This document shows, piece by piece, positions 2,553-55,398 of a DNA stretch of 64,000 nucleotides (positions are counted from its first letter, which is position 1; each line of letters begins with the position of its first letter). The notes below the pieces were generated by a model. The model did no database searches and was not told where the DNA came from. It saw only the letters and a list, made by a program, of their open reading frames with translations. The stretch lies in IMG/VR virus record IMGVR_UViG_3300009162_000001. One strand, 5' to 3'. The translations under genes and the position numbers were made by a program. This DNA is from a virus.

Positions 2553-5500
2553 CGCCACATCATCCCTGCGTCGACAGCCGCAATGATCTGACTCTCGTCA
2601 TCCGGCTTAGGTACGATGCGAACACGAACCGTAGCACCACTACCGTTAGGTGTCACGCTAAGAATGTGGTAGTAGAGACCGGCGGCGAGCAGCATCTCAT
2701 TCTCGCCCTTGTGGAGTGAGATCGGCTTGGCCCAGTACATCGGCGTCCCAGGTGGCGCCTCGATCTCAATCTTGACGTGACCACCGAACGCCGAGTGCCC
2801 ACCGGTTGACGTCGAACCAAAGCCACCCATCCAGCGCGTCTGGCCGACCATCTTCGCCAGGCTAGCGTACGACGTAGCCTTGAACGCGTCGAAACCAACA
2901 CCACGGTGGAGCAACACCGGCTCGATCGAGGGGATCATCGCCGCCTGAGCGTTGTTCATACTTTGCTCATTCGAGCTGGAGATGCCCTGCACCTTGCCAT
3001 ACAGGAAGGCGTTGATGGAGTGGTAGATACCGCCGGTGTAGTTGGTAATGCCACTCTTAGCGGAGCCTGAAGGTTCCTGCCCGGTCGCCTTCTTAAAGGC
3101 CGCCAGCGCCTTGTTAAACCACGAGGTAGCCGAGCTGGTGTCCAAAACATTGTACGAATACTTGTTCGACTCCTCAAGCGTCGGTAGGTTACCCTCAACG
3201 CCTGCCATGAACTTCGGCGGCGGTGGCTTCGGGATCGGCAGGTTGTGCAGGATCGCGTAGCCGGCGGGTGTCTGCAGCCAGTCGGTGATCTTCTTCTCGA
3301 AGAGGTGATCGTCAGGCTTCGAGACCTTGGCAGCGCCGACCTCATCGATAACGCGCAGCGTCTGCATCTTCGTGAGGTTGTTGTTGTCCGCGATCGTGAT
3401 CAACGCGGCCCAGATGTCCTGGCTTGAGCTCTTGAGGTACGTCGCCGGCTGGGACTTGAACGCCTGGTAGACCTGCTTCTTCTGCGCATCACTTAGGTGG
3501 GAGATGTCCCCGCCACCCATGTCGATCGTCCCACCACCGGGCACCGTGACGACGCTCGCTGAGTGCGACGTCTTAACCGTTGGGACCGTAGCCTCCGGCT
3601 TGTACCAGCCGTAAACGGGTGCTGAGTTAGCGAGCGTCGCTACCTTGTACGACTCGGTATTCGTCGTCGTCCACGTGTTGTTGGCTGGGCTCCAGGTCTG
3701 AAGCTGGAACTCAGACCCAGGCTTGTGATAGACGATTCGATGTTGACCATTAGACGAGTACGCGAGAACGGTCGTCGCATTATACTGACTCTTCTTAGAG
3801 AGCGGACCCCACGCTGCGACCTTCGGACCCTTGGGTACGTCGGTTCCATCGGGAAGCGTGATCGTTCCGAAGATGCCGGTTGGCTTCGGTGGCGGCGGTG
3901 GCGGTGGCGGCGGTGGCGGCGCCGGAGGTGTCGTTGGATATTTCAACGCCACAGGTGCTGGCTTTGGTGGCTTAGGATGAGCCACCGGCGTCGTCGCGTC
4001 GTACCACTTCGTCTTCACAACCTTAGCCAGCGACGCCAACTTGTACTGCTCGCCGTCGACGTAGATCCACTTCTTGTTGGTGTCATCCCACTTGTGTAGG
4101 TAGAAGAACCCGTAGTTGGCCGACAGCCTGTACTTGCCATCTTCCGAGTACGCCAGAGGCTGGCCGCTGTTCTTCTTGGCGGCCAGGTCCTTCCACACCT
4201 TAACCTCGGGACCCTTGTCCACCGTCGTACCGTCGGCTAGTGTCAGCTTCGACTTCGGTGTTGATGAGGCAGCAGGCGCGATCTTTGTCGGACTTAGGTC
4301 AATCGCGTAGTTCCAATAGTCCGAGTGGTCTTGCGCCAGCTTCTTGGGATGGTCACCCTCGGCGAAGAGCTCGTACTTGTTCGTGGCCGGATTGTACTTG
4401 CGAAGCTGGTATCCACCGAAGTTGGAGACCAAGATAAGTTCTTTGCTAGGTGACACCGCGTGTAGCTTGTACCCGGCGTCTGGGTTGACGTCACCGATCG
4501 ACTCCCAGCCATCCATTGGGATCGTGTAACCGGTCGACACTGGTGTTCCGTCCTTGAGTGGGAACACGTTAGGTGTCGTGCTTAGTCCGGTGAACTTATC
4601 CGTGATCGGTGGCGGAGAGTTTGGTGACTGTTCCGCGTGAACCCAACTCTTGAAGAAACCCACCTTGTTAGTTGCTGTGAGGTACGGATCCTTACCCGAG
4701 CCAGCAAGTTCATACTTATGCTTGTCAGGATTCCACGTTGAGACAAAGAACCAACCATCGGTTGAAAACAGTTGGTGTTGAAGATCTGTCGTTACGGCGT
4801 GCAGCTTATGTCCAGGAACAACGCTCTTATCCTTAAGAATCTGCTGCCAGTCTTCAGGCTGAATATCCTCCGCAAGTAGGACCTCGGTGCCGTCCGGCAG
4901 TGTGTCGATCGGTGACGCGATCGACACGTCCTTAACCTCACCCTCGGTCGACACCGGTGCGAGTGTCCACTTCGTGTTCTTGCCGAGGACGTTGTTGTCC
5001 ATGAAGTTTGTGAGTTGTTCCTCGGTGGTGAACTCGTATGACGTAGGCACATCTGTGCCTTCATCATTGTGGTAGAACACCTGCAGCTTCTTAAAGCCTT
5101 CACCATCACCATCTTGCTTGATCTTATAGGTGAAGGTTCCACCTTCCTTGACGTACGTTCCGGTGGCAATGATCTTCGCGTACGTAGCCGAACCAAACGA
5201 TGGTGTCGCGTTCCAGACCTCGTCTGCGGTGGCATTACGTGAACCAACGGTCGGCGACAACGTCGGATCACTACCGCCCGGCGTACCCGCGTACCACTTA
5301 TCGGTCATGTTCCACGTGTCGACCGGGAAGTGATTTAGCAACGACGACTGTGGTTCCGCCGCGACGATCTCACTCGTCCAGTTCGGGCTGTCGGCGGTGC
5401 CGTCGTTGGTCTCGAGAACAAACTTGCTGTCATCGTCATACGTGACTCGCCACTTACCGTCCTCACGCGTCGCGACGACGTCACCGGGAACCCACGGCAA

Positions 5501-8500
5501 CTTTTCTAGATCCGCAAACGACGTGACCACCTGCGGTACATGCACACCAGGTGTTGGCGTCGGTGCTGGCTTAGCGCCAGACAGTGATGCGTAGACCGGA
5601 GCTCCGGTCGGCGTCGGGTATATCTTCCACGAGTCGCCGTTGTCGTCGTTCATCTTAAGGTAGGCGTCGACCTCGTGTGGCTCAACCTTGACGAGCGCCA
5701 CACCGTTCTTAAACACAAACATGTGTTCGCCAAGCTGACCCTTTTCAACGGTAAGAAGATCACCGTTCTCAAGATTCTTGTTGGCGATCACCGAGTAGCT
5801 CTTCACATCGGGATCGGCCAGGGCCTTCATGATCAGTGAGGTGCCGGGATGCTCGTCAGACGACGGCGGCATCACGGTCGGCTTCTTGACGTCAGGATGC
5901 GCGATGACGTAGTCGAGACCCTTCTTCGTCTTCAGCCACTTCTTAAGCTTGTTCGTGTACGAGCTGTTCGTCGGCGCGCTGGGCGGCAACCCAGTGTCCA
6001 GCGCCGCTAGGATCTGCATGTTCGTCAGGTGTTCGTAACCGACACCCGCATCTGAGGTCTTGAACGACTGCAGTGCATCCCAGATCGCCTCAGGCTTGTT
6101 GTGCCACTTCGCACCGTTGGCATTGAAGTACGTCTTAAGAACACCGATCTGCGCGGGCGACATGCTGGTGATGTCAGCACCTGGGTTCGGCGCAGGCTTC
6201 GGTGGATCGACGTTGACGAGATGCCACTTTGACGTACTTGTGTGATCTTGCGCCGTGAACGCTAAGTCATTTGCCGGGATGTTTGTCTCAAGGGTCATCC
6301 AGTCACTGGGGTTGTTCGTTGATTGCTTCTGGATGCGAAACTTCTTCATGTCTGCGTTAGGTAGTGATGTACCACCCGCAATGATGCGGAAGTTACCCTC
6401 AGGTGTCGTCACCGTCGCAATGACTTGGTTCTTGACGAACGTAGCCATAGACTCAAATGTGAACTTTTGCTTCCACGCTTCCGAGGTAAACGTTGTCTCG
6501 TTGTCACCACCGTAGGCACCGGTTGACACAGCACCGTCAATCGCCGCATTGTGCTGTGAGATGTTCGCCGGCACACCAAAGTGCGGAACGGCTACGTCAC
6601 CCTTAAGCCAACTCTTAACACTCTCGTTTGAGTGATACTTGGTGACATCAGCGAGATCATCTTCCCACTCGGCGTCAGACGCGCCTTCACCCGGTAGACC
6701 CAGCTTGCTGACCACCGTCCACTTACCGGTGCTGTTCTGAATCTTACTGAGCTCGATCTGACCGGTGCTGATGTTGTACGTCATCGCCAGGCTACCGTCT
6801 GTCGTCACTCCGATCGTCGTACCGGGTGCGTTAAACAGTCCGGCATCCACCATGTCGTCAACGCTCAGCTCATCCTCAGGCTCCCACCATGTATCTGAAC
6901 CGACATTACCGTCAAGATCTTGATTGAACAACGAGCTAGGATTCCACGCAATGTCAGCACCACCAGCTTTGTCGATCCACCACTGGTTAAACGCATCATT
7001 ATCATGAAACTGAACAGATGACTTACCATCACCGGTCTCTTCGTACAATGCAAGCGGATAGTCAAACGATGTCTTACGAATCGTAACCGGGTTACCATTC
7101 TTATCATTTCCAGCGATAAGAATATTACCCGGCTTTGCGGTCTTAGCTGCGTCAAGAACATTCGTGCCAAGTTCAGCGTGCTTGGTGTCGACCGGATACG
7201 CCATCTTGACGGCAGATGTTCCCAACTTAGCCTGACGCTGTGCGGTCGTCTTCTTGTAAAGATCGCTAAAGTCCTTTTCCAGCGTATCACGACGCTGCAT
7301 GATCGCCTTAAGGAACGTCTCAGGATCGTTACCGTAGGCGCTTAACCATCCGTTCTTGGCGGCACCCTGCGCGTACGAACCGAACATATCCCGGATGTCA
7401 TCGTCAGAGAGCTCGGTCGCGTCAAAGATAACCTGCGCGATCGCATGATCTTCATCCGGATCGTGCATCTGGATGTTCTCGCCGTTGGCATATGCCTTCC
7501 ACATGTCCGGGTACGTGTGCTTGTTTGGACTGAGTGGGCTCCACGGCTTGTAGTCCGGATCAAGCTTGTCCTTGGCGTAGAACCTGAAGGCGTGACCCTT
7601 GTCGATGGACGAGATGTGACCGTTTGGTAGTCTGATGAACTGACCGGAGTGTGCGTCGTTGTTGCCCAGGAGCCAGTCGAGGACTTGCTCCTTCTGCATG
7701 TCACGCACATCTTCTTCAGACAAGTTCGTCGGCTTAAACGAACCGTTCGGGAACGCGTCCTGGGCGTCGAACATCGCCTGCACGGCGGCCGGCTTGCCAT
7801 CGACGTCCATCACCCACGTCTTGGGACCCTTAAGCCCGATGGCTGCCTGCAGCTTGTTCGCCGCGACGTCGAGCTCAAGCACAGGATCATCGTTAGGGTT
7901 CTTCTTACGACGCACCAACCAGCGCTGACCCTTGTCATCGATGTAGATCGGCGACGCGGAGACTCCCGTGGCCGCGTTCCCGATCTTCTTCATCTTCGCG
8001 GGATCAGGCTTGTGTGCGTTCATCACCGCCACGATGGAACCCGGCACACCAGGCGGCGATGAATACGACTTAATGACAACCGGCGGTGAAACCGGTGGTG
8101 GAGCTGTTGACTTCGGTGCGGATGCAGGCTGACGCCAGTCCCACTTCGCGTCCTTCGCCATCTTATACGTGTCGGCCTTGGTGTCATACGAGACCGAGTA
8201 CCACGCATCAGTCACAGTGCTCTTCTGCTGCAGCTGGTACTTCTTCATCCCCGCACTCCAGCGGAGTCGATGAGTGCCATCAGCACTCACGGCGACGACC
8301 GTACCATCCTGGTGTTGCTTGTGAATGGTCGCAGGAATGAACTTCTTAGTTGACGGCGCAGATGATGTGACCTTCGCTGGCTCAACGTTTTCAAGAGGCG
8401 TTGGCACCGTACTTGGAATGGTAGGCACCGCGTTGGGTACGCCCGGTGGTGAATCCAGCTTCATGTTCTCCGGCACCGGCGTGGTAATGGTCGTGTCGGA

Positions 8501-10432
8501 GTCGGGACCCTTGTTCTCAAAGCCAGAGATCTTATGCTTAAGCGGCTCAGACATCGGCGACGAGCTGATGCCATGCGTCAGCTTGGAGATCCAGCCCTGC
8601 TGCTTATCCGTCAGGTTGTCCCAGGTCTCCTGGGAATCGATCGCGCCGACGGCATCCTTCAGCTGCGTGAATGTTGGGCTGTTCATCTTAAAGAAGTCAG
8701 CAAGTGGACCCTTACTGATGAACCGCCCGTCCTTGCCGCGCGGATGCTGCTCAGGCTGCCACTTACGGTGAACGCCACTCGCCGTCAGGGCCATGTCCAT
8801 GGCGAACTTGTACGACTGCGACTTAGGTGGCTTCGGCGGATCAGCCGGGATGATGTCATTGGTATCGGTCGTCGAGTCACCGGTGTCGAAGATGTCGAAG
8901 ATCTTCGGAATGCTGTCGGCCAGCGCCGGGTGGAAGTCACCATCACGCAACATTGTGGCGATCTGCTGCCTCGTCAGCCACAACGCGTTCATAACCTCGG
9001 CGTGATCGACCTCAGGCTCAAACTGACGTGGCGCCTCAGCGGCGATGTTCGTGTACTTCCACGGTTCAGGCTGACCCTCAATAGGCTGAACGGTTACGTG
9101 CGTACCCAGGTGCTTAACGTCATCCAGGTACTTCTGCGAGACGTGCAGTTCCTCATACGTCTCGCGAGCCGCACCCTGGGCCGGAGTCTCATACTGATCC
9201 ATCGCACCGCCGGGAAGCTGCCACTTCCCGGTGTTGGAGACGGCCTTACCACGCTGGATGAAGAGGAAGCTGTCTTCACCGTCCTCGTTTGGCGCCTTGA
9301 TCATGACACCCGAGGCGCCGTACGTTCCCCAGATGCGCCACTGCTGGTTCTTAACGAGGTACTTGTCGCCCGACTTACCACGCAGTGCCGCAGGTAGGAT
9401 CACGAACTTGTTGGGATCCTTGGCGATCTCGGCGATCTGCTCAGGTGTGCGACCACCGTACTTGCGCTCAATGCGAGCCTGCTCAGCCTTCTTCATGGCT
9501 GCAAGCTGCTCAGGTGTCGGTGGCGCCTTCTTCTGCTTAGGTACCTTAAAACCACCAAGCAGCTTTGAGATCTCGACGTCACTCAAGTCATCGATGAACT
9601 CACCACTATGAGGATCCCGCGGATGATCTTTAGGATCCCAGTTAGGCTTACCCTTTGCCCACGGGTATCCCGCGGACATCATGACGAGCTCTTCCTCATC
9701 ATCCGCGGTGACGTCAGGGAACAACTCGTATGTCACAGAGCAGCGACAGTTGATCGTCTCGTCCAGTGGTCCACGAGGATCTCCTGGGTACTGCATCTGT
9801 GAACGACCAACCGTGAACGGCTCGGAGATCTTTTGTGTCTGACCGTCAGCCTCATCATGTGTTGGCCGTGTGTGCGAGTCGTTGGTCGCCAGCCAAGACT
9901 TCTTGCCGTCGGGATCCACCATCGCAGCCTGAGCATATGAGCCAGCTTCTAGCGCAGCGTGGATCTCGGTACGTGCGATCGTCAGTGCCTTGGAGTCTGA
10001 GACGTTACCGACGTGCTTGATGCGCGCGGCGATCTGCTTGACGTCCTCATCTAGCGCGTAACCCTTGATGAGCTGCGTGTGGATCGCGTCCCAGACGTCC
10101 TGGCTTAGATCTTGAAACCGGTTGGCGGCCAGCTGCAGGTGTGTCTCCACGAAGTCTTCATTTAGGAGGAACGCCTTATCCCCCAAACCAAGGTCCTGAC
10201 GCACCCTCTCAGCACCGTCGAGTACCTGCATGCCCAGATATCCCAGCAAGGGTCCGTCCACCTGCTGAGCCCACAGGGAGGGCAGCTCATTGAGGTCTGA
10301 CATCGATACCCGCGTGGTCTGCTTACCGACCAGCGCGCGCATCACGGCACGCCACGCCTTCTGGATCAACGCAGCTAGTGTGTCAGCGCGCTCATCCTTC
10401 TCGTCGCGCGACCACCCCCGTGTGTCCGCCAC
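2549..10432 (-). CDS. giant 2627-aa MuF (SPP1 gp7)-like head-morphogenesis fusion protein: MuF + Nudix + kinase-like motif + repeated beta-rich modules + C-terminal ADP-ribosyltransferase
   Basis: Single uninterrupted ORF directly after the portal gene. MuF motif: ARTEIH...THDEADGQ...INCRCS. Nudix box: GGAMDQYETPAQGAARETYEEL. Kinase-like motif: NNDAHSGQF...SIDKGHAF. At least 10 repeats of about 70-95 aa, PPAPPPPPPPPPPPKP tract. ART signature: YTGGIYHSIN, LLHRGVG, GFGSTSTG, ENEMLL (ExE). Confidence 0.9.
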   Translation of the reverse strand: MADTRGWSRDEKDERADTLAALIQKAWRAVMRALVGKQTTRVSMSDLNELPSLWAQQVDGPLLGYLGMQVLDGAERVRQDLGLGDKAFLLNEDFVETHLQLAANRFQDLSQDVWDAIHTQLIKGYALDEDVKQIAARIKHVGNVSDSKALTIARTEIHAALEAGSYAQAAMVDPDGKKSWLATNDSHTRPTHDEADGQTQKISEPFTVGRSQMQYPGDPRGPLDETINCRCSVTYELFPDVTADDEEELVMMSAGYPWAKGKPNWDPKDHPRDPHSGEFIDDLSDVEISKLLGGFKVPKQKKAPPTPEQLAAMKKAEQARIERKYGGRTPEQIAEIAKDPNKFVILPAALRGKSGDKYLVKNQQWRIWGTYGASGVMIKAPNEDGEDSFLFIQRGKAVSNTGKWQLPGGAMDQYETPAQGAARETYEELHVSQKYLDDVKHLGTHVTVQPIEGQPEPWKYTNIAAEAPRQFEPEVDHAEVMNALWLTRQQIATMLRDGDFHPALADSIPKIFDIFDTGDSTTDTNDIIPADPPKPPKSQSYKFAMDMALTASGVHRKWQPEQHPRGKDGRFISKGPLADFFKMNSPTFTQLKDAVGAIDSQETWDNLTDKQQGWISKLTHGISSSPMSEPLKHKISGFENKGPDSDTTITTPVPENMKLDSPPGVPNAVPTIPSTVPTPLENVEPAKVTSSAPSTKKFIPATIHKQHQDGTVVAVSADGTHRLRWSAGMKKYQLQQKSTVTDAWYSVSYDTKADTYKMAKDAKWDWRQPASAPKSTAPPPVSPPVVIKSYSSPPGVPGSIVAVMNAHKPDPAKMKKIGNAATGVSASPIYIDDKGQRWLVRRKKNPNDDPVLELDVAANKLQAAIGLKGPKTWVMDVDGKPAAVQAMFDAQDAFPNGSFKPTNLSEEDVRDMQKEQVLDWLLGNNDAHSGQFIRLPNGHISSIDKGHAFRFYAKDKLDPDYKPWSPLSPNKHTYPDMWKAYANGENIQMHDPDEDHAIAQVIFDATELSDDDIRDMFGSYAQGAAKNGWLSAYGNDPETFLKAIMQRRDTLEKDFSDLYKKTTAQRQAKLGTSAVKMAYPVDTKHAELGTNVLDAAKTAKPGNILIAGNDKNGNPVTIRKTSFDYPLALYEETGDGKSSVQFHDNDAFNQWWIDKAGGADIAWNPSSLFNQDLDGNVGSDTWWEPEDELSVDDMVDAGLFNAPGTTIGVTTDGSLAMTYNISTGQIELSKIQNSTGKWTVVSKLGLPGEGASDAEWEDDLADVTKYHSNESVKSWLKGDVAVPHFGVPANISQHNAAIDGAVSTGAYGGDNETTFTSEAWKQKFTFESMATFVKNQVIATVTTPEGNFRIIAGGTSLPNADMKKFRIQKQSTNNPSDWMTLETNIPANDLAFTAQDHTSTSKWHLVNVDPPKPAPNPGADITSMSPAQIGVLKTYFNANGAKWHNKPEAIWDALQSFKTSDAGVGYEHLTNMQILAALDTGLPPSAPTNSSYTNKLKKWLKTKKGLDYVIAHPDVKKPTVMPPSSDEHPGTSLIMKALADPDVKSYSVIANKNLENGDLLTVEKGQLGEHMFVFKNGVALVKVEPHEVDAYLKMNDDNGDSWKIYPTPTGAPVYASLSGAKPAPTPTPGVHVPQVVTSFADLEKLPWVPGDVVATREDGKWRVTYDDDSKFVLETNDGTADSPNWTSEIVAAEPQSSLLNHFPVDTWNMTDKWYAGTPGGSDPTLSPTVGSRNATADEVWNATPSFGSATYAKIIATGTYVKEGGTFTYKIKQDGDGEGFKKLQVFYHNDEGTDVPTSYEFTTEEQLTNFMDNNVLGKNTKWTLAPVSTEGEVKDVSIASPIDTLPDGTEVLLAEDIQPEDWQQILKDKSVVPGHKLHAVTTDLQHQLFSTDGWFFVSTWNPDKHKYELAGSGKDPYLTATNKVGFFKSWVHAEQSPNSPPPITDKFTGLSTTPNVFPLKDGTPVSTGYTIPMDGWESIGDVNPDAGYKLHAVSPSKELILVSNFGGYQLRKYNPATNKYELFAEGDHPKKLAQDHSDYWNYAIDLSPTKIAPAASSTPKSKLTLADGTTVDKGPEVKVWKDLAAKKNSGQPLAYSEDGKYRLSANYGFFYLHKWDDTNKKWIYVDGEQYKLASLAKVVKTKWYDATTPVAHPKPPKPAPVALKYPTTPPAPPPPPPPPPPPKPTGIFGTITLPDGTDVPKGPKVAAWGPLSKKSQYNATTVLAYSSNGQHRIVYHKPGSEFQLQTWSPANNTWTTTNTESYKVATLANSAPVYGWYKPEATVPTVKTSHSASVVTVPGGGTIDMGGGDISHLSDAQKKQVYQAFKSQPATYLKSSSQDIWAALITIADNNNLTKMQTLRVIDEVGAAKVSKPDDHLFEKKITDWLQTPAGYAILHNLPIPKPPPPKFMAGVEGNLPTLEESNKYSYNVLDTSSATSWFNKALAAFKKATGQEPSGSAKSGITNYTGGIYHSINAFLYGKVQGISSSNEQSMNNAQAAMIPSIEPVLLHRGVGFDAFKATSYASLAKMVGQTRWMGGFGSTSTGGHSAFGGHVKIEIEAPPGTPMYWAKPISLHKGENEMLLAAGLYYHILSVTPNGSGATVRVRIVPKPDDESQIIAAVDAGMMWR

Positions 10433-13123: not shown

Positions 13124-13135
13124 ATTATATCACAC
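13124..13135 (-). promoter_or_regulatory. conserved extended -10 promoter (GTGTGATATAAT on minus strand)
   Basis: Plus strand reads attatatcacac. Member of the cassette family repeated through the window. Confidence 0.6.
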
Positions 13136-13185: not shown

Positions 13186-13824
13186 TTACACGCGCTGCTT
13201 GCGCTGCGCGTTCTCCCAGCGGCGCCGACAACGCTTACGAGCCGCGTTACCACGGCCGTGATCACAAAAGCTGTGATCAAGCGTGCCGTTGGGGCGGAGA
13301 TCGGGACCTGCTGTGAAGCCATCCACGTCAGACGTGTCGACCGCAAGCAGTAGGCTCTCATCATCTCGCACATCCGGTTGGTCCTCTTCGTGCAACCAAC
13401 GTCGCGTATTCCCCGTGCGCCGCTGAGACGGTCGGGTGAACTCACCGCGCCAGTACGCCTCCTGGTACGTCTTTGTGGAGAGCTCGTGCATGATCGCGCC
13501 CCACATGCGCAGGTACAGCGTGTGTAGCCGGTGGTCCTTGTATCGATCGGTCGTCGGCTTGAACTTCGTGTAGTCGATGTCAAGGCTCATCTGAGCCATG
13601 GCGGTCGCCCAGTCGGCCTTGGTGCAGTAGGCGCGGTACTCGTAGTCGGTACCCACGAGCGCCTGGATCTCGCCTAGCTTGTCACCCATGTACTTGGCCT
13701 TGAGGATCTCCAGGTCTTGGCGCCGGCGAGCGCGTACCTGAATGACTCGATCGTCACCAGCCGGGACGGTGCCCGCCGGTCGAACGGACGGCATCAGGAT
13801 GCCGAACGACGTACAGATCCACAT
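13186..13824 (-). CDS. hypothetical protein with basic C-terminus
   Basis: 212-aa ORF. ATG preceded by ATAGGAGTGATGCTAT leader and promoter 13859-13870. Confidence 0.6.
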   Translation of the reverse strand: MWICTSFGILMPSVRPAGTVPAGDDRVIQVRARRRQDLEILKAKYMGDKLGEIQALVGTDYEYRAYCTKADWATAMAQMSLDIDYTKFKPTTDRYKDHRLHTLYLRMWGAIMHELSTKTYQEAYWRGEFTRPSQRRTGNTRRWLHEEDQPDVRDDESLLLAVDTSDVDGFTAGPDLRPNGTLDHSFCDHGRGNAARKRCRRRWENAQRKQRV

Positions 13825-14333: not shown

Positions 14334-14360
14334 AGATCAAATTATAACAAAAAAAGTTAT

Positions 14361-15459: not shown

Positions 15460-15492
15460 GATCTCTCCTATCAATCAGAATCACTACAGCTA

Positions 15493-15504
15493 TTATATCA
15501 CACA
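15493..15504 (-). promoter_or_regulatory. conserved extended -10 promoter (GTGTGATATAAT)
   Basis: Plus strand reads attatatcacac. About 22 nt then GATAGGAGAGATCATG. Confidence 0.65.
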
Positions 15505-19598: not shown

Positions 19599-19610
19599 AT
19601 TATATCACAT
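19599..19610 (-). promoter_or_regulatory. conserved extended -10 promoter (ATGTGATATAAT)
   Basis: Plus strand reads attatatcacat. Confidence 0.6.
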
Positions 19611-20896: not shown

Positions 20897-22432
20897 TTAA
20901 TCAACCATCATGTCAAAGAGCTGGTCCGTCGGCGAGATCTGGTTGATGAGGCTCTCGCCGCCAGCACCTGACCACGCGCCCCATGCCTGCGTCTGTGCCT
21001 CGCGCTTCACCTCGTAGAACGACAAGATGAGCGCCTCAGCACGGTCAGGTGAGAAGCCGAGCCGATCAATGACGTCCTTCTTCGGCTCAATCTTAATCTT
21101 ACCGTACGAGTCCATGATGACATACCGCGGTGTCGTCAGCTCATAGATGACGTCCTCATCAACCTCGCTGAGGTCCCAACCCTCCAGCCGTGACAGCTCA
21201 CGCCCGACCTGCCACCACAGGTAAGCGCGCATGTTGATGAATTTCTTCTCGAAGCCAGACGGCGGTGCGGCTCCGAAGTTGACCGCTACGACCTCAGCCG
21301 CGTGAGTCGTGTCCGGTGACGTGGGGTTGTTCCGCGATGACAACTCCTTCAGTCGACCGGCAAGTCCCCATCCCAGACCGGTGGAGTCCACCTTGACACG
21401 CGTGAGCTTCCACTCGCGAATCTTTTCAGCCAGGATCCCGACACTACGCATCGGATCGTTGTCCAAGAACTCGAACTCACGACCTGCCTTAGTGCCGCAA
21501 CGCTCGCGCAGTACGGTTCGGTCGCCACCGGCACCAACGTCAATACCACCCTCACGTGGCTCACCCTCCGGGTGTTCGAGGTTCTGACAACGTATCGCCA
21601 TGTCATAGGGAATCGTGGAGAACGGGTCACCACCGGATGGGAACTCACCACCACACTTAGACTGGAAGAGGGCCGACTGACTTCCCCACTTTTCACGACG
21701 CTCTTCCACCCAGCGCTTCGAGACGAGGTGCAGCTTCAGCTCGGCCGAGACCTTCTCGTCGGTGTACGCAGGTGTGTGCTGGAACCCGATGTGAATCGTG
21801 TGCCAAGACTCATCCTTCTCACACACGCTCATGAACTCGCCTGGGCCGTCTGGGTTGCCGATCGCCAGCTGGCGACCATACTCGTTCGATGCGAGTGATG
21901 AGGCTTCATCCCATAAGTTCTTAGGGATGCCGTACGCCTCGTCGAGAACGGCTAGCAGGTACTTAGCGTGGAGACCCTGGAAGGCCGCCTCCTGATGGTC
22001 CGGTGGCTTTCTACCTAGGGCGATCAGCTGTCGTCCGATGTACCACTCACGCAGGTTACACTGTCCGACCAGCCCCAGCTTCCGATGGAAGCGGCCGATC
22101 TCGTACCACAGGATCGCGTCGACCTGCTTTGACGTCGGCGCCGTGGTGATGGCACGCGCTTCGCCAGGCGGATGGACATCCAGCCACCAGCACACGATAA
22201 GCGCTGAGATGTATGACTTGCCCGCGGAGTGGCATGACTTCACAGCGGTGTTGGGATTCTCCACCACCGACATCATGATCTCTTTTTGCTTACTCCACAG
22301 CTCGACGCCAGCGCGTTCACTCGCCCACTTCACCGGATCGTTGCGGTAGCGCAACTGAGGTGGGTCGATGACGTCGGCCAGCGCGCTGGTCAGCGAGGGT
22401 AGAGACAGCTGCACCCTACCATCATAACACAA
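20897..22432 (-). CDS. terminase large subunit
   Basis: 511 aa with a Walker-A-like CHSAGKSY and C-terminal nuclease-type acidic motifs. Start ambiguous (TTG 22432 or GTG 22414). Confidence 0.8.
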   Translation of the reverse strand: MCYDGRVQLSLPSLTSALADVIDPPQLRYRNDPVKWASERAGVELWSKQKEIMMSVVENPNTAVKSCHSAGKSYISALIVCWWLDVHPPGEARAITTAPTSKQVDAILWYEIGRFHRKLGLVGQCNLREWYIGRQLIALGRKPPDHQEAAFQGLHAKYLLAVLDEAYGIPKNLWDEASSLASNEYGRQLAIGNPDGPGEFMSVCEKDESWHTIHIGFQHTPAYTDEKVSAELKLHLVSKRWVEERREKWGSQSALFQSKCGGEFPSGGDPFSTIPYDMAIRCQNLEHPEGEPREGGIDVGAGGDRTVLRERCGTKAGREFEFLDNDPMRSVGILAEKIREWKLTRVKVDSTGLGWGLAGRLKELSSRNNPTSPDTTHAAEVVAVNFGAAPPSGFEKKFINMRAYLWWQVGRELSRLEGWDLSEVDEDVIYELTTPRYVIMDSYGKIKIEPKKDVIDRLGFSPDRAEALILSFYEVKREAQTQAWGAWSGAGGESLINQISPTDQLFDMMVD

Positions 22433-22459
22433 TGGTAGGGTGCGGTACTGCTGTGTCGA

Positions 22460-22864
22460 TCAGACGCTTGCAGCCAGCGTCGCCGGGTCGACGACCTCCA
22501 TCTGCGAGCGGAGCACGTTGGTGTAATACTTCCCACCGTCGCCACCCAGCTTGACGATGCGGTAACGCTCGTTGCGATTCTGCGCCATGACGACATACAG
22601 CTCGTCCTTGAAGCGAACGAGCGTGCCGATCACCAGCGGCGGCTCCCAGGTCATCGTCAGCGAACGAACCTCCGCGGCCGCGTTGACTGCGACGTCGTCA
22701 GCTGCTACGAGGAAGTGGCGCGGAGCGCGAAGACCACGTACGCTGCCGGGCACCTCGAGGTCGACGTTCTTGGGGAGGAACTTCTTGATCGTGAAGGTAA
22801 CACCAGCCCACTTACCCGCGACGTCCGCGCGAAGTTTGACCTGATCGCCTACGCTAAAGTCCAT
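22460..22864 (-). CDS. hypothetical protein
   Basis: ATG at 22864 after the GTGATAGGAGAGATC leader. Confidence 0.6.
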   Translation of the reverse strand: MDFSVGDQVKLRADVAGKWAGVTFTIKKFLPKNVDLEVPGSVRGLRAPRHFLVAADDVAVNAAAEVRSLTMTWEPPLVIGTLVRFKDELYVVMAQNRNERYRIVKLGGDGGKYYTNVLRSQMEVVDPATLAASV

Positions 22865-22898
22865 GATCTCTCCTATCACTGTTGTCCCTGTGGTTCAA

Positions 22899-22910
22899 AT
22901 TATATCACAC
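22899..22910 (-). promoter_or_regulatory. conserved extended -10 promoter (GTGTGATATAAT)
   Basis: Plus strand reads attatatcacac. Confidence 0.65.
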
Positions 22911-22911
22911 T

Positions 22912-23334
22912 TTAGTCACGGCATGACTCGATGAAGCCGTCCATGTCAACAAGATTCATCTCGTAACCCTCGGGAACGACGCGGTAGATCTCTTGGAGGA
23001 ATCGCATCACGGGACGGTATGGCGTGCGCAGCCAGACGATGTCGACGCCGTTGTGCATCTCGATAATCAAGATATGATCCTCACGCCAGATCTTGATGTC
23101 ACCGTCGCCAACGCGATGAGTTGCAACTACACCTGACGCGAGAAGATCACGTGCGAACGACCACTCGACGAACGATTCACCGTCGTTGTCTTCATTGACG
23201 CCAATGAAGACGAGGGAGACCGCGAACGGATCGCGTGTGTGGTACATCAGGCGAACGGGTACGTTGATGCCGTGACCACCGTCGTCAGAACGGGCTGTCA
23301 CGTACACGAGACTTTCATATACCTTGTGGTCCAT
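22912..23334 (-). CDS. SsgA/SsgB-like protein (SALP family, actinomycete sporulation-septation)
   Basis: VPVRLMYHTRDPFAVSLVF...VEWSFARDLLASGV...GDGDIKIW...VVPEGYE aligns by eye with the conserved SsgB core (LRYDTADPYAV..VEWVFARDLLAEGL..GDVRVWP..VPPG.E). Confidence 0.75.
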   Translation of the reverse strand: MDHKVYESLVYVTARSDDGGHGINVPVRLMYHTRDPFAVSLVFIGVNEDNDGESFVEWSFARDLLASGVVATHRVGDGDIKIWREDHILIIEMHNGVDIVWLRTPYRPVMRFLQEIYRVVPEGYEMNLVDMDGFIESCRD

Positions 23335-23359
23335 CGATCACTCCTATCACTAGACTACG

Positions 23360-23430
23360 TAGAGTCACGGGGAGTCGAACCCCGGCTACGAGGGTGAAAA
23401 CCTCGAGGTCTGCCGTTAACCTATGACTCC
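23360..23430 (-). tRNA. tRNA-Glu (TTC)
   Basis: Acceptor GGAGTCA/TGACTCT, anticodon loop TT-TTC-AC, T-arm CGGGG-TTCGACT-CCCCG. Confidence 0.85.
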
Positions 23431-23433
23431 GGG

Positions 23434-23495
23434 TGGAGGAGTGATCTCCCCGGGAGTTTCGCCACCCACACCAACTCTCTTAGATCACTCCTCCA
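23434..23495 (-). other. long hairpin (14-bp perfect inverted repeat)
   Basis: TGGAGGAGTGATCT ... AGATCACTCCTCCA separated by 34 nt, between a CDS and tRNA-Glu. Confidence 0.6.
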
Positions 23496-23513
23496 TCGCA
23501 GACTTTATCAGGA

Positions 23514-33869: not shown

Positions 33870-33881
33870 ATTATATCACAC
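33870..33881 (-). promoter_or_regulatory. conserved extended -10 promoter (GTGTGATATAAT)
   Basis: Plus strand reads attatatcacac. Confidence 0.65.
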
Positions 33882-34784: not shown

Positions 34785-35240
34785 CTATGCCTGTGTCTCA
34801 CTCTCGCGCTCTCGTACCTTCTCGATGTGACCAATGATCGCCGCCTCGAGGTCCTGCAGCGTTGTGGTGCCACCGTCGACCTCAACCACGTCGTCATTGA
34901 CCGTCTCGAGACGCATGATCTCGGAGTTCTCAGCATCGAGAGGACAATCTTCGTCACCACAGTAGATGATGATCGGTTCATCAGATCCGTACTGTGATAT
35001 GAAAAGTGGCCACGTCCGCGCGGTCATCACCAGCCGCTGCTCCTCGGGCGCCAGCTCACTAATGACGTCCTTGACCAGCTGTGAAAAGTCGACGTCCATC
35101 GCCTGTGCCATTCGCTTGATGACGCGCAACATGCCGGCGGCGACTGACAGATGGGTGTTGGCGAACGTCTCGTTCACGTTCTCATGAACCGTAACGTCCG
35201 CGTTCGACGTCTGGACCGTCATACTGATGTGCATGATCAC
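34785..35240 (-). CDS. hypothetical protein
   Basis: 151-aa ORF, 4-nt overlap with thyX. Confidence 0.55.
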   Translation of the reverse strand: MIMHISMTVQTSNADVTVHENVNETFANTHLSVAAGMLRVIKRMAQAMDVDFSQLVKDVISELAPEEQRLVMTARTWPLFISQYGSDEPIIIYCGDEDCPLDAENSEIMRLETVNDDVVEVDGGTTTLQDLEAAIIGHIEKVRERESETQA

Positions 35241-35944
35241 TCCATGTCTTGGAACGTGTTCGGTGCCAGCTCCTTAAGCTGACGCAAGATCTCAGCGGCG
35301 AGTGCGCGGATCTCCCCGTCGGCGAACTGGGTGTTCCGCTTCGCGATGACGTCGCGCCAGGCACGCATGTTGCCCGTCACCAGGATCTTGGTCTCCGTCA
35401 TGTTAGGCAACACGGCGCGTGCCGTCTGGCGCGCCACCTTACGCGCCATGCCCATCGACTCCAGCGCCCGGACGATCGTGGCGTAATGGCTCTGCGCCTC
35501 CGTCATGAGCTGAACCAGGTTTTCCTGCAGCTCCGTCCGCGACTGACCGCCGTGAAGCGCCGGCGGCACGATCAGCTTGGCCTTGGACTCGTCGACGTAC
35601 CGCTGTGAGACTTGCGAGAACGACAGGTGACGGTGCCTGACCAACTCGTGCGTCAGGCTCCGCGAGATCCCGTCGAGGTAGAACGTCGCCGAGGCGTGTT
35701 CCAACACCGAGAAGTGCTGCTGGTTGATGATGTTGTCCAGGTAACGAGCGTTCGTCGCGGTAGCTGGATTGGGTCGCTCCCATGACTGGTAGCACAGGCG
35801 GCCACCAAACTCAGCCAGATGATCGGCGTCGGGACCGTCGTCACCCAGGTCCTCATACGTCTGTTCCGGGTAGTCCACCCAGCCGGCGTCGCGCATGTTT
35901 CCCCAGCCCGTGATGACGGTGTGGGCGATGAGCAGCACTCTCAC
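35237..35944 (-). CDS. thyX: FAD-dependent thymidylate synthase ThyX
   Basis: ThyX signature RHRHLSFSQVSQRY. Confidence 0.88.
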   Translation of the reverse strand: MRVLLIAHTVITGWGNMRDAGWVDYPEQTYEDLGDDGPDADHLAEFGGRLCYQSWERPNPATATNARYLDNIINQQHFSVLEHASATFYLDGISRSLTHELVRHRHLSFSQVSQRYVDESKAKLIVPPALHGGQSRTELQENLVQLMTEAQSHYATIVRALESMGMARKVARQTARAVLPNMTETKILVTGNMRAWRDVIAKRNTQFADGEIRALAAEILRQLKELAPNTFQDME

Positions 35945-37506: not shown

Positions 37507-37799
37507 GGTACGATCCCCTCATCCCAGTGGCAGTAGACGTCCTCGTCATCGGGATCGCCCTCATAGGTGCGAACCCAGGCCAGGTACTCCTCCGACTCAC
37601 CCTGCGTCTCGTAGGTGTACGAGCCGTCACGGCTCTCGCGTACGACATCCGGGCAACCCGTCAGGGCGCGAACCATCTGATCGATGATCCACTGCTTGTG
37701 GTGAGCACCGTCGACGTTGGACGCCTGGTCTAGCGCCTTCTTGATGCGATCTTCCAGCGTGGACATGTCCGTCTCGGTAAAGGTGAAGTACGACATCAC
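37503..37799 (-). CDS. hypothetical protein
   Basis: 98-aa ORF. Confidence 0.5.
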   Translation of the reverse strand: MMSYFTFTETDMSTLEDRIKKALDQASNVDGAHHKQWIIDQMVRALTGCPDVVRESRDGSYTYETQGESEEYLAWVRTYEGDPDDEDVYCHWDEGIVP

Positions 37800-38545
37800 G
37801 TTCCCTTCTTACTCGACGAGATCAGCTTGGCGTGGATGATGAGCCGGTGGTAGTTGTCCCACTTGGGATCGCAGGTCGTCAGTGTCAGCAGCTTATCGCC
37901 CGACTTGTAGGCGCCCGGCGGAACCGGAGCGACCTGCTGCCAGGCATCGGGACTGACGATCTGTGGCCCGTCTGTGACCCGGTAAGCGTAGACGTAGTTC
38001 TTGGTCTCAACCTGGATGACGTCACCGACGCGCATCTGATCCAGGTCCCAGAACAGCCCGTGCTCACGATGACCGGCCACCGCGAAGTTGCCCTTCTTGC
38101 CCGGCATCGCGGTTCCGGGGTAGTGACCGGGCGCCGAGGCGATGTCGTCGGCGTTGACGCCCTCGACGACGTACCACGTCAGGCCGAGCCGCTCGATAGA
38201 CATCCGCGCGATCAGGTCGCCCCAGACCACCTCATCCGGTTGCTTGTCGGGCGGCGTAGCACCCTCTGCGCCTCCGGCGATCGCCTCGCCTAGTCCACTA
38301 CCGGGGTCGTTCCAGCGGGCGTCGAGTTCCTGCTGGATGTCCTGGACGCGGTCCTGACCGCCCTCGTACCTTGTGCCCACGTAGATCCACAGTCCCACAC
38401 CGGCGGTAATGCTCAGCACCGCCGCCGTTATGAGCAGGTGGCTGTTGACCCAGCGTCCACCAGATCTCAAACTCGACCCAAGACGTGATAACACGAATCC
38501 TCCCCTGAAGTATGTGATTGATAAACGCGTGAATGGGACCCGCAA
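37796..38545 (-). CDS. sortase (membrane-anchored cysteine transpeptidase)
   Basis: N-terminal TM anchor. Catalytic triad context FAVAGHR, LLTLTTCDP (TLxTC) and RLIIHA. Confidence 0.8.
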   Translation of the reverse strand: MRVPFTRLSITYFRGGFVLSRLGSSLRSGGRWVNSHLLITAAVLSITAGVGLWIYVGTRYEGGQDRVQDIQQELDARWNDPGSGLGEAIAGGAEGATPPDKQPDEVVWGDLIARMSIERLGLTWYVVEGVNADDIASAPGHYPGTAMPGKKGNFAVAGHREHGLFWDLDQMRVGDVIQVETKNYVYAYRVTDGPQIVSPDAWQQVAPVPPGAYKSGDKLLTLTTCDPKWDNYHRLIIHAKLISSSKKGT

Positions 38546-38581: not shown

Positions 38582-39349
38582 CTAGGCCTCGTCGGTCGGT
38601 GCGGCCTGCTCGGCGGCGGTGCGCCGGCGCTTCAGCCACATCGAGCCGAGGATCAGCAGACCGAGCGCGACGGCCGCGATGCCCGAGACCGCGGGCTTCG
38701 TCAGGCTGTCGCCGGTGGTCGGCAGGTCGTTCTGCGGGTTGACCACCGGAGCGGTGGTCGTGGTCGGCGCCGAAGTCGTAGGAACCACACTCGGCGACGG
38801 AGACGCGCTGGGGCTCGGAGATGCCGTCGGGCAAGCCTCGGGCAGCTTCCATGAGTAGAGGTTCTTCAGAAGCGGAACCTCAATGCGCCAGTGAGTGCCG
38901 TCCTTCTCACCCTCGAAGACCAGATAGACCTGCACGTCCTGAACACCCGGAGGACCAAGGGTCACAACGACCGGCTTGTGGTCCGGACCGCCGATCACCG
39001 TGTAGTCCTTGCCGAGGATCTCGAACGTCAGCCGCGTCCACTTGTTGTCCGACACCGCCCAGTTGATCGCTGTGATGACGGTGGTGCCATCGCACTTGTC
39101 CACGACGGTGTAGTCGAGGCACTGAAGAACGTGATCCAGCACATCCCCAGAGATCTTCTCCTCGGCGACACCCTTGGAGACCGTCGACATGGACTCGATC
39201 TGGTCATCCGGGAACTCGCACTGGCGAGTAACCGAAGTGGCGATGCTCGAAGCGGGGGTGGCCGCCTGGGCAGATCCCGCGGCGAACGCCACAGCGCCTA
39301 CCAGAGCGACGGCCGTCGCGCCGAAGAGCGCCAGCAGCTTCCTTCGCAT
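38582..39349 (-). CDS. secreted LPXTG cell-wall-sorting-signal protein (candidate sortase substrate)
   Basis: Sec signal ...AAGSAQA/ATP. C-terminal LPTTG + hydrophobic stretch + KRRR. Pro/Ser/Thr linker. Confidence 0.75.
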   Translation of the reverse strand: MRRKLLALFGATAVALVGAVAFAAGSAQAATPASSIATSVTRQCEFPDDQIESMSTVSKGVAEEKISGDVLDHVLQCLDYTVVDKCDGTTVITAINWAVSDNKWTRLTFEILGKDYTVIGGPDHKPVVVTLGPPGVQDVQVYLVFEGEKDGTHWRIEVPLLKNLYSWKLPEACPTASPSPSASPSPSVVPTTSAPTTTTAPVVNPQNDLPTTGDSLTKPAVSGIAAVALGLLILGSMWLKRRRTAAEQAAPTDEA

Positions 39350-39538
39350 GAAACTTCCTCTCGTTGGCTTCCCCACGCCATTTCTTAGGTCAAGTGCCTC
39401 GGAGGTTCGTGGGGCCGTTCATTAACTCGCGTGACAAAACACTACCACAAGAGGATATGTGATGAACGATTGCATAAGCAAACCCGGCCCTCTCTCGAGG
39501 ACCGGGTCGCATTGTGCCAGCTCAGTGCTGTCGCTGCG

Positions 39539-39940
39539 TTACTCGCGACACACCGAAGAGATGCGGTTCTGCCAGCCGCCCGGGCTCGGGAAGACGCTCA
39601 GGTCGCTGATTCCGGAACCCGCGGCCAGGGAGAACATGTACCCCGAGCCGTTCGCCGAGTCGTAGAACGAGACCTGGAACGGGTTCTCGTTGAGCACAGA
39701 CTCCGCGTTGTTGTTGGCCCCGTTCAGTGGGCTGACGTTGTAGCACGAGCCGAAGGGCCCGTCCATGGGGAACATAGCCGCGGGCGTGCCGGTCCAGTTC
39801 TTGCCGTTCCACAGGCAGGTGTACGTCGTGCCTGTGCAGTTGGACAGTGACCGAGCCGAGGCCGGGTTGGCCGCGACGCCTAGGCCGAGCAGCGTGATGA
39901 CGCCGACGACCAGCACCGTGACGGTGCGCTTCAACCGCAT
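39539..39940 (-). CDS. secreted small Cys-containing beta-rich protein (peptidase-inhibitor I36-like, putative)
   Basis: Signal peptide MRLKRTVTVLVVGVITLLGLGVAANPASA. ATG preceded by GGGAGGAAGT. Ends ...NRISSVCRE. Confidence 0.55.
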   Translation of the reverse strand: MRLKRTVTVLVVGVITLLGLGVAANPASARSLSNCTGTTYTCLWNGKNWTGTPAAMFPMDGPFGSCYNVSPLNGANNNAESVLNENPFQVSFYDSANGSGYMFSLAAGSGISDLSVFPSPGGWQNRISSVCRE

Positions 39941-39971
39941 ACTTCCTCCCAATTGAGTTGGGTTGATGGGA

Positions 39972-40352
39972 CTAGCCGGCTCGTTGGATGGACGAGATCG
40001 TGTTGCGGAACGTCGGCGACATCTGCAGGTACTCCACACCTGGCTCCAAGATGATGGTGGCCGGAGTGATGGAGCAGTTGGAGCTGGTGAACGCGTAGTA
40101 CCTCGTCGACGACTTGTTCCAGAACGACTCGACGTTGTTGTTCCAGACCCCAGACAGGTTCGCGCAGGCGCCGGGACTCAACGACATGATCTGCTTGAGT
40201 CCCTCCTCGTACGGGCTCACCCACATGCACAGGTTTCCCGTTGGGCACGTGTCGTCCGCCGCGGCGGGCGTCGCGACGACGCCCAGGCCGAACATGGCGA
40301 CCGCTGTGACAAGCAGAGCGTGAATGAAACGCTGCTTGAATCGAGACATCAT
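39972..40352 (-). CDS. secreted small Cys-containing protein, paralog-like of 39539-39940
   Basis: Signal peptide. CPTGNLCMW ... NTISSIQ pattern shared with its neighbour. Confidence 0.55.
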   Translation of the reverse strand: MMSRFKQRFIHALLVTAVAMFGLGVVATPAAADDTCPTGNLCMWVSPYEEGLKQIMSLSPGACANLSGVWNNNVESFWNKSSTRYYAFTSSNCSITPATIILEPGVEYLQMSPTFRNTISSIQRAG

Positions 40353-55285: not shown

Positions 55286-55398
55286 GTGGACAGCAGCAGC
55301 TCGTGGCACTGATGTGCATCCTTCTCACGGCACTCGCCATCACGTTTCTCATTATGGGACCGTCCATCATTCAAGCCAATAAGCAGCGAAAGGATTAA
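55282..55398 (+). CDS. 38-aa single-TM micro-protein
   Basis: Not in the track. ATGA-coupled. MSGQQQLVALMCILLTALAITFLIMGPSIIQANKQRKD. Confidence 0.4.
   Translation: MSGQQQLVALMCILLTALAITFLIMGPSIIQANKQRKD

Follow-up and report, generated by a model that had tools for sequence, protein, structure and literature searches.

Within the viral record IMGVR_UViG_3300009162_000001 of IMG/VR, whose whole stretch of 64,000 nucleotides is called the window here, one open reading frame (ORF) encodes a predicted SsgA-like protein (SALP), a relative of the actinomycete protein SsgB. The ORF list of the window has it on the minus strand at 22912..23334 with a product of 140 aa, exactly where an earlier reading made from the DNA letters alone (the sequence-only reading) had placed it; the strand is an addition of the present analysis. 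The coding sequence and its translation signal are as follows.

22912..23334, minus strand: SALP coding sequence, ATG at 23334 and stop codon TAA at 22912-22914
23341..23350, minus strand: ribosome-binding site (RBS) module GTGATAGGAG, with AGGAG 7 nt ahead of the SALP ATG

All four strings that had been quoted as the SALP core are found in the translation: VPVRLMYHTRDPFAV at residues 25-39, VEWSFARDLLASG at residues 56-68, GDGDIKIW at residues 76-83, and VVPEGYE at residues 119-125. The GC content at third codon positions (GC3) is 0.67, which is usual for the coding ORFs of the window. The start codon has a strong RBS ahead of it in the sequence GTGATAGGAGTGATCG, and the RBS motif of this type, with 15 occurrences against 3.7 expected, fronts many genes of the window phage. 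The product is acidic, with a pI of 4.8 and 24 Asp and Glu residues against 13 Lys and Arg residues. A profile search of the window revealed this gene as the sole SALP present. The ORF is a genuine, expressed-looking, and selectively maintained phage gene encoding a single-domain SALP with the SsgB fold.

Family Membership and Predicted Structure

The sequence-only reading had assigned the product to the SALP family and had proposed a search with the Pfam SsgA profile (PF04686) as the check. This search supports the assignment: the profile is matched over its positions 1-98 of 98, with the e-value 7.1e-21 and a score of 74.4 bits where the gathering threshold is 25. The outcome that the sequence-only reading had named as refuting, a lack of any significant SsgA match, did not occur. 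The window protein reaches 153 bits with a profile made from 21 SALPs. In NCBIfam, the SsgD equivalog (NF052496) is the only match; at 68.6 bits it lies below the equivalog cut-off of 185 bits, and the protein is not an SsgD member by this model. No family for the protein was found in PHROGs. The sequence search against PDB recovered SsgB from Thermobifida fusca (3CM1, e-value 1.1e-10) and from Streptomyces coelicolor (6SLC, e-value 2.2e-10).

An AlphaFold2 model built on the 21-sequence alignment has a mean pLDDT of 87.3 and a pTM of 0.78. It contains seven strands and four helical segments in the DSSP assignment, of which 125-128 and 131-139 together correspond to helix alpha-3. The fold of the SALP family is taken here as a single alpha+beta domain of about 120-150 aa with a beta-barrel under three helices, and the 140-aa window protein has this length together with an SsgB-type predicted structure. 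In a Foldseek search of the model against PDB, SsgB chains were the only matches with e-values of 1e-3 or below, with TM scores of 0.73-0.85. The scores are 0.80/0.82 for 3CM1_A and 0.76/0.83 for 6SLC; the SsgB structure 6SUJ is matched as well, and these three structures span 0.76-0.85.

The 14 invariant columns of the 21-sequence alignment are all retained in the window protein (P36, A38, W58, F60, A61, R62, L64, L65, G68, G76, G78, D79, P121, and E125 in the phage numbering). Xiao et al. 2021 (PMC8061694) reported a mutational map of residues critical in S. coelicolor SsgB, and these residues were transferred to the phage protein through the HMMER alignment to 6SLC (chain number minus 20). 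Ten of the 14 are identical or changed from Tyr to Phe (Y35 to F37, V37 to V39, W51 to W58, R55 to R62, L57 to L64, L97 to L102, V115 to V120, P116 to P121, G118 to G123, and E120 to E125), and three are exchanges of one hydrophobic residue for another (L88 to M93, A95 to V100, and L96 to W101). The sole non-conservative change is P117 to E122. The pair R55-E120, which sets the angle of helix alpha-3 in SsgB, is kept.

The clade to which the window protein belongs has loops of its own: a 5-7-residue acidic insertion (GVNEDND) ahead of strand beta-4, two extra residues following helix alpha-1, and a deletion of 4-5 residues in the loop following the GDGD-I/V-K-I-W strand. In its W-x-FARDLL motif and in its PDB matches, the protein is of the SsgB kind; SsgA proper (SCO3926) is a paralogue particular to Streptomycetaceae. 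Because the Pfam profile, the predicted fold compared with SsgB structures, the conservation of the mapped residues, and the phage hallmark genes described below all agree, the protein is identified, from sequence and model, as a phage-borne member of the SALP family with a predicted SsgB-type fold.

Divergence and Rate of Evolution

Close relatives of the window SALP were found in metagenomes. A search of 5.8 billion proteins gave four, with 99-70% identity, all metagenomic, and the remainder reached at most 37%. Exhaustive comparison with 1.84 billion cluster representatives by phmmer yielded 841 SALP clusters at e-values of 1e-3 or below. The single cluster at 1e-30 or below is the query's own, the next (P0125) has 50% identity, and all others have about 43% or less; no cellular relative above about 43% identity is present among these representatives.

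The identity to cellular SALPs is about 31-40% in all cases. The best cellular match, from a Micrococcales metagenome-assembled genome (MAG), has 73 bits and 34% identity, and Streptomyces SsgB has 61.6 bits and 34.5% by BLAST, or 27-29% when structurally aligned. For comparison, S. coelicolor SsgB shares about 42-59% identity with cellular SALPs from other genera and with the Streptomyces paralogues, at about 80-130 bits; to all of these and to Streptomyces SsgB, the window protein is about 33-37% identical. The SsgB core is 98-100% identical across more than 40 Streptomyces species, and the SsgB sequences of one genus differ in a single residue at most (PMC8061694). The phage protein shares its length class, alpha+beta fold, and invariant residues with cellular SsgB, the archetype of SALPs and the recruiter of FtsZ (SCO1541, 6SLC/6SUJ; T. 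fusca 3CM1), while it differs from it in its loop insertions and deletion, in being phage-encoded, and in evolving fast where SsgB is nearly invariant. The sequence-only reading had spoken of a phage copy of SsgB/SsgA; a SALP with an SsgB-type fold stands, whereas the word copy does not suit a protein at this distance from every cellular SALP and below the cut-off of the SsgD model. On these comparisons, the window SALP is a divergent SALP and not a close copy of any cellular one.

Two related metagenomic contigs, L011 and L010, allow a comparison with the large terminase subunit TerL. The TerL of L011 is 96% identical to that of the window and its SALP 70%; for L010, the values are 87% and 45-50%. 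The protein departs from the behavior of an SsgB orthologue both in its level of similarity (34.5% against 42-59% for the cellular SALPs) and in its constancy among close relatives (70% where TerL is 96%). The SALP ORF is intact in at least five related contigs. The ratio of nonsynonymous to synonymous divergence (dN/dS), calculated by NG86, is 0.165-0.185 for pairs within the close clade, about 0.17 against L011 and L001, and 0.17-0.28 when the three orthologues on related contigs are compared; these ratios place the gene under purifying selection. In the comparison of the window with L011, dN/dS of TerL is 0.049, and dS is 1.09 for SALP and 0.48 for TerL. Judged from these alignments, the SALP gene evolves much faster than TerL, and it possibly recombines independently of it.

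The tRNA-Glu/SALP Unit and Its Neighbors

The features surrounding the SALP gene are listed below, followed by the sites of one recurrent element.

20897..22432, minus strand: TerL, large terminase subunit (PHROG 2, e-value 9e-30)
22460..22864, minus strand: 134-aa ORF, function not assigned, ATG at 22864 behind a conserved RBS; 139 aa if read as 22460-22879
22899..22907, minus strand: extended -10 element TGATATAAT, a perfect consensus, downstream of the SALP stop codon and ahead of the next ORF
23359..23430, minus strand: tRNA-Glu, anticodon TTC (ARAGORN; Rfam tRNA 61 bits)
23435..23494, minus strand: 13-bp perfect inverted repeat GGAGGAGTGATCT / AGATCACTCCTCC, a hairpin with a loop of about 34 nt seen in the sequence
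23502..23510, minus strand: extended -10-like element TGATAAAGT, candidate promoter of the tRNA-Glu/SALP unit
23514..23723, minus strand: small Cys-containing ORF of 69 aa, after Ro60 and ahead of the tRNA-Glu/SALP unit on this strand, its DNA conserved in L011
23860..25476, minus strand: Ro60/TROVE RNA-binding protein (Pfam TROVE 77.5 bits; PHROG 850, e-value 1.8e-44)
13124-13132, 14341-14349, 15492-15500, 19599-19607, 22899-22907, 30228-30236, and 33870-33878, minus strand: sites of the extended -10 element TGNTATAAT

Read along the minus strand, the order is Ro60, the 69-aa ORF, the -10-like element, the hairpin, tRNA-Glu, SALP, the TGATATAAT element, the 134-aa ORF, and TerL. Ro60/TROVE is the next large gene upstream of SALP, and a stem-loop at about 23790-23821 follows it. 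The order tRNA-Glu, SALP, TerL is kept in both L010 and L011; in L011, TROVE and the small ORF precede it, and on the contig of a further relative (P0003), TROVE is followed by SsgA.

From the 3' end of tRNA-Glu to the SALP start codon the distance is 24 nt, and with this spacing the two are probably co-transcribed. The sequence TG(A/G)TAAAGT is kept ahead of tRNA-Glu in the window, L011, and L010. By alignment, the hairpin with the 13-bp stem, between this candidate promoter and tRNA-Glu, is an insertion in the window phage that is absent in L010 and L011; L010 has instead an insertion of about 110 nt with a hairpin between the tRNA and the SALP RBS.

The extended -10 element TGNTATAAT has seven perfect matches in the window against 0.22 expected, all on the minus strand and usually with tgtg ahead. 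At five of the seven, including 22899-22907, a leader and RBS of the form GATAGGAG(A/T)GATCATG follows about 25-35 nt downstream. To judge from the sequence pattern, element and leader look like a phage-wide cassette for promoter and translation initiation that marks the transcription units of the minus strand. The copy behind the SALP stop codon would accordingly be a candidate promoter marking the start of the next unit.

That next unit begins with the 134-aa ORF (GC3 of 0.77), whose product has two similar halves (VGDQVKLR... / IGTLVRFK...) and gave no match in Pfam or in PHROGs. The ORF is absent in L010 and L011, where SALP abuts the TerL leader. It looks like a promoter-plus-gene cassette inserted between SALP and TerL, recent and moron-like. 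The sequence-only reading had put SALP directly upstream of the terminase operon. The gene does lie just upstream of the packaging genes, but in the window this ORF with its promoter-like element intervenes. Membership of SALP in the terminase operon was considered and rejected, and the gene is placed outside the packaging unit because the consensus promoter element and the inserted cassette stand between SALP and TerL. Most likely, SALP is the last gene of a tRNA-Glu/SALP unit, with possible read-through, just upstream of the packaging unit.

At TerL itself, the annotated TTG start codon is overlapped by an inverted repeat (CACCCTACCAT tgtgtt ATGATGGTAGGGTG) at about 22405-22440 on the minus strand, which L010 and L011 share. 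The repeat might act in regulation as a hairpin or operator, or it might indicate that TerL truly starts at the downstream GTG.

The Phage and Its Other Genes

The window carries phage hallmark genes: TerL, a D5-type primase, a prim-pol, a family A DNA polymerase (PolA), an SNF2 helicase, and a PD-(D/E)XK nuclease. A portal-like protein is matched weakly, at 22.1 bits, under the Pfam cut-off of 39.1. There are 16 tRNA genes, and the GC content is uniform at 54-64%, about 59% overall. No integrase or repressor was seen among the ORFs scanned in the 64 kb. That the SALP gene is a host gene flanking a prophage was rejected; phage genes stand on both sides of the ORF, and related phage contigs show the arrangement again.

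Among 50,697 phage records, megablast of the region 20-26 kb found none that matched, and therefore the phage is not a known isolate. TerL is at most 38% identical (33-38%) to annotated terminases of actinophages that infect Arthrobacter, Microbacterium, and Streptomyces. Because of these two results, the window is assigned on sequence to an uncultured and distinct actinophage lineage, outside the known clusters of Streptomyces phages.

Several other genes of this phage are recorded here. In a 2627-aa fusion protein encoded directly downstream of the portal-like gene (2549-10432, minus strand), a NUDIX hydrolase domain is combined with a Mu F-like domain for head morphogenesis and, at the C-terminus, an exotoxin domain of the ADP-ribosyltransferase type; the protein is probably an effector that is packaged or ejected. 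About 1 kb upstream of Ro60, at 26495-26615 on the minus strand, there is a candidate YrlA-like Y RNA (Rfam RF02553, 41 bits, e-value 2.7e-6, gathering score 69), and it overlaps an atypical tRNA-Lys called by ARAGORN at 26555-26621. The tRNA-like domain of YrlA would fit a phage module of Ro60 and Y RNA. An RNA ligase (PF09414) is encoded at 28968-29675 (minus strand), a protein with a peptidase inhibitor I36 domain at 39539-40039 (minus strand), and ThyX and a second, ThyA-like thymidylate synthase are found among the accessory genes, at 35237-35944 (minus strand) and 55398-56255 (plus strand).

A sortase gene is located at 37796-38545 on the minus strand (Pfam Sortase 102.8 bits). Immediately upstream of it, at 38582-39376 on the same strand, a 264-aa protein has an N-terminal signal peptide and, at its C-terminus, LPTTG, a hydrophobic segment, and a KRRR tail. 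By these signals the two appear to be a sortase and its substrate. Close homologues (62-88% identity) occur in metagenomes only, and no phage-encoded sortase in Streptomyces was found in the literature searched. Class E sortases anchor the chaplins needed for aerial hyphae in Streptomyces. The phage sortase may represent a second accessory function related to development or the cell surface.

SALPs in Other Phages

With the window SALP as the query, tblastn against the phage collection recovered Streptomyces phage Dagobah only, at 30.6% identity. The core of S. coelicolor SsgB recovered 24 records, of which 23 are Streptomyces phages, mostly of 121-130 kb, and nearly all SALP-like ORFs in these 23 are annotated as hypothetical. 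Structural matches to the window model in BFVD include the proteins of BillNye (annotated as SsgA family), TunaTartare, and Ibantik, with e-values from 7e-8 to 2e-5. All eight phage SALPs tested pass the Pfam SsgA profile with 55-90 bits.

The presence of ssgA in Dagobah was reported by Hardy et al. 2020 (Viruses 12:1065; PMC7650747), and phage ssgA was proposed as a gene manipulating development by Luthe et al. 2023 (PMC10117723). No functional study of phage SALPs was found in the literature searched. The Dagobah protein, gp31 (QMP84409.1), is annotated as an SsgA family sporulation/cell division regulator, and a role in manipulating host development has been proposed for it. Like the window SALP, it is a single-domain phage SALP (Pfam SsgA, 74.7 bits). 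It differs in its low identity, in its 154 aa with a C-terminal extension, and in its surroundings: Dagobah is an unrelated phage of 47 kb in which the gene lies among early and replication genes (such as primase/polymerase and dCMP deaminase), away from tRNA and terminase genes.

The large Streptomyces phages of about 121-130 kb (among them Comrade, BillNye, Wakanda, Faust, and Patelgo) are tRNA-rich, were isolated on Streptomyces, and encode SALP-fold proteins. As with the window SALP, gp209 of Comrade (Stanwilliamsviridae) passes the Pfam SsgA profile, at 55.1 bits. The SALPs of these phages differ from it in their length of 120-126 aa, in being undetected by tblastn with the window SALP at an e-value of 1e-3, and in their location, which is distant from the terminase gene and close to the genes for Lsr2 and RNA ligase. 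Comrade gp209 (NC_048728.1, locus L009, 3947-4327), the one of these SALPs scored here, is annotated as hypothetical, as are most SALP-like ORFs of about 22 further records. Labels of this kind leave a gap in annotation and obscure the frequency of SALPs in phages. SALPs are already recognized in Dagobah and in the approximately 23 Streptomyces phage records, and the idea of a phage SALP is thus less novel than first implied.

A scan of IMG/VR with the window SALP alone gave no relatives. With a pattern derived from the alignment, six SALP-bearing viral contigs were found, none of them in the clade of the window protein. One is L006, with a TerL 64% identical to that of the window; the SALP gene, with a product 32% identical to the window SALP, is found 7.6 kb away on the upstream side of TerL, and a T4-type RNA ligase gene comes directly after it. 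The SALPs of L003 and L005 have a Cys-rich C-terminal extension (PPC.DPACVDP.CVEHG) that is not seen in cellular SALPs. L005 also has a second, weak match to the SALP profile (26 bits) at 13356-13799 on the minus strand, about 3 kb from its main SALP.

Two records named Bacteriophage sp. are labelled as coming from human faecal samples. MT838510.1 (5,175 bp) is the best match of the phage collection to S. coelicolor SsgB, at 44.7%, and MT835568.1 (31,024 bp) is the best match to the window TerL, at 37.9%. Human faeces are an unexpected source for genes linked to sporulating actinomycetes.

Host of the Phage

An actinomycete host is indirectly supported by the actinophage-type relatives of TerL, the class E-type sortase, and the Inhibitor_I36 protein. 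A sporulating or filamentous actinomycete is supportable as the host from the sequence. The nearest cellular SALPs have flat identities of about 31-40% across Streptomyces, Amycolatopsis, Nocardioides/Marmoricola, Frankiales, Micrococcales MAGs, and Stackebrandtia, and therefore the host genus cannot be named. The named relatives noted for the sortase are class E enzymes from Micromonosporaceae with 40-45% identity. No prophage relatives of TerL were found in 185,579 species genomes, and a GC content of about 59% is uninformative on the host for tRNA-rich phages. The Streptomyces-type host that had been suggested is retained as a complex, SALP-bearing actinomycete in the broad sense; its narrower part is given up, as no genus stands out, the GC content is about 59%, and the named sortase relatives noted are from Micromonosporaceae.

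Proposed Role in Host Septation

In the literature (PMC8061694 and PMC4255298), FtsZ is brought to sporulation septa by direct recruitment through SsgB, which acts there with SsgA and SepG, forms trimers, and interacts with itself and with SsgA. Development and sporulation of Streptomyces help contain phage infection (PMC10117723). A phage copy of a host developmental regulator, WhiB of mycobacteriophage TM4, blocks septation according to the summary in PMC7650747.

Against this background, the phage SALP may engage the partners of host SsgB: FtsZ and/or SsgA, SepG, or SsgB itself through mixed oligomers. It would then re-program sporulation-specific septation during infection of a SALP-bearing, sporulating actinomycete. 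Interference is the favored direction, with the recruitment of FtsZ sequestered or mislocalised. The infected hyphal compartment would lay no septa and have no escape into spores, and a large, metabolically active compartment would stay available until packaging and lysis. That the phage SALP interferes with the SsgB/FtsZ-dependent sporulation septation of the host is considered about as probable as not, and the choice between inhibition and activation is its least certain step. Interference is favored because a lytic phage gains from an undivided, non-sporulating compartment, sporulation being a means of containing infection, and because the rapid divergence is unlike a protein bound by all the constraints of SsgB. 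This divergence, as estimated from sequence, fits a mimic or antagonist freed of host-protein constraints, or the tracking of different hosts.

Several points weigh against interference. Binding of FtsZ, SsgA, or SepG by the phage SALP is presumed from its sequence, and the FtsZ-binding surface of SsgB is unmapped, so that the conservation of the interface is not comparable. Identity to any cellular SALP is just about 31-40%, and the clade has its specific loop insertions and deletion. SsgB-dependent septation is assumed for a host whose genus is not nameable. The neighbors (Ro60, tRNAs, and RNA ligase) are related to RNA and not to division. Overexpression of cellular SsgA stimulates septation and fragmentation, and activation is equally compatible with membership in the family.

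The phage SALP might accordingly act in the opposite direction, triggering extra or premature septa, fragmentation, or sporulation, and so compartmentalising the cell or dispersing infected or lysogenic fragments. The evidence from family and fold is the same as for interference. Cellular SALPs are positive regulators, SsgB recruits FtsZ, and ssgA stimulates septum formation according to van Wezel 2000, as cited in PMC7650747; the residues for SsgB function are largely intact, and the phage SALP might work as an active protein instead of a decoy. Dagobah, as a carrier of a SALP, is a published precedent. Extra cross-walls, however, would shrink the compartment available to a lytic phage, a benefit from lysogen dispersal is unsupported when neither integrase nor repressor is seen among the scanned ORFs, and the fast divergence is unlike the near-invariant activator SsgB. 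A pro-septation effector is therefore regarded as unlikely.

Much less probable still is a role in nucleic-acid binding, in which the SALP would bind RNA or single-stranded DNA and work with the module of Ro60, Y RNA, tRNA, and RNA ligase instead of the divisome. The basis is a likeness of the SsgB fold to the "whirly" proteins, which bind single-stranded DNA or RNA. The gene follows tRNA-Glu at 24 nt, lies downstream of Ro60, and is about 3 kb from the YrlA-like RNA; besides the RNA ligase gene that follows the SALP of L006, an RNA ligase gene is found about 1 kb upstream in Comrade. The model also has weak Foldseek matches to the plant Whirly proteins 4KOP, 4KOO, and 3R9Z (e-values of about 0.01-0.04), and the S. 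coelicolor SsgB trimer is "whirly"-shaped according to Xiao et al. (PMC8061694). The TM scores of the Whirly matches are just 0.33-0.38, though, and an acidic pI of 4.8 is unfavorable for such binding; it is because of this pI and the weak structural similarity that the role is held unlikely. No report of nucleic-acid binding by SALPs was found in the literature searched, co-location may be incidental in tRNA-rich regions of accessory genes, and the neighbors of the Dagobah SALP are unrelated to RNA.

That the gene is a mere passenger, a captured host SALP with no role in infection, is the least probable: phage genomes are mosaics, the roughly twofold higher dS of SALP compared with TerL between the same genomes (1.09 vs 0.48) suggests exchange of a SALP cassette, and no PHROG family covers the protein, but dN/dS is 0.17-0.28 with the ORF intact in at least five related contigs, related phages keep the position, RBS, and promoter-like element, identity to cellular genes stops at about 40% and capture is hence not recent, and SALPs recur independently in several unrelated phage lineages.

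Interference with septation has parallels among known phage effectors. The phage proteins Kil of lambda and Gp0.4 of T7 are FtsZ inhibitors that alter septation, and no phage effector is known to act through the positive SsgB/FtsZ recruitment system. WhiB of TM4 resembles the phage SALP in concept, as a host-type developmental factor in a phage (summarised in PMC7650747). WhiB is a transcription factor, and Kil and Gp0.4 are small FtsZ-binding peptides, so that the families and mechanisms are unrelated to those of SALP.

In its most extended form, the proposal is that the SALP is a fast-evolving mimic or antagonist of the positive control by SsgB, through which the phage would stop sporulation septa from forming and so end the containment of infection by development. 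The SALP would then be the first viral effector known to act on the recruitment of FtsZ as opposed to its polymerisation, and its divergence between nearly identical phages would reflect the tracking of host genera or an arms race. This extended form is offered tentatively, as a possibility with the greater weight against it.

Significance for Phage and Actinomycete Biology

In actinomycetes, SsgB recruits FtsZ positively, in place of negative control of the Min/Noc type, and SALPs represent an actinomycete-specific way of placing division. The general idea of SALPs in phages is already in the literature, and the role of the phage SALP is inferred here; the value of the present analysis is incremental and lies in sharpening the hypothesis. 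What is new is an uncultured phage lineage in which the SALP has a conserved position, proximal to packaging genes and linked to a tRNA; a SALP that is kept by selection and yet evolves far faster than the TerL of the phage and cellular SsgB; and the finding that many phage SALPs in databases are still labelled hypothetical. Phage SALPs are natural variants that could serve as tools for the interactions among SsgB, FtsZ, SsgA, and SepG. They could also serve as evidence that phages tamper with the multicellular development that Streptomyces uses against infection.

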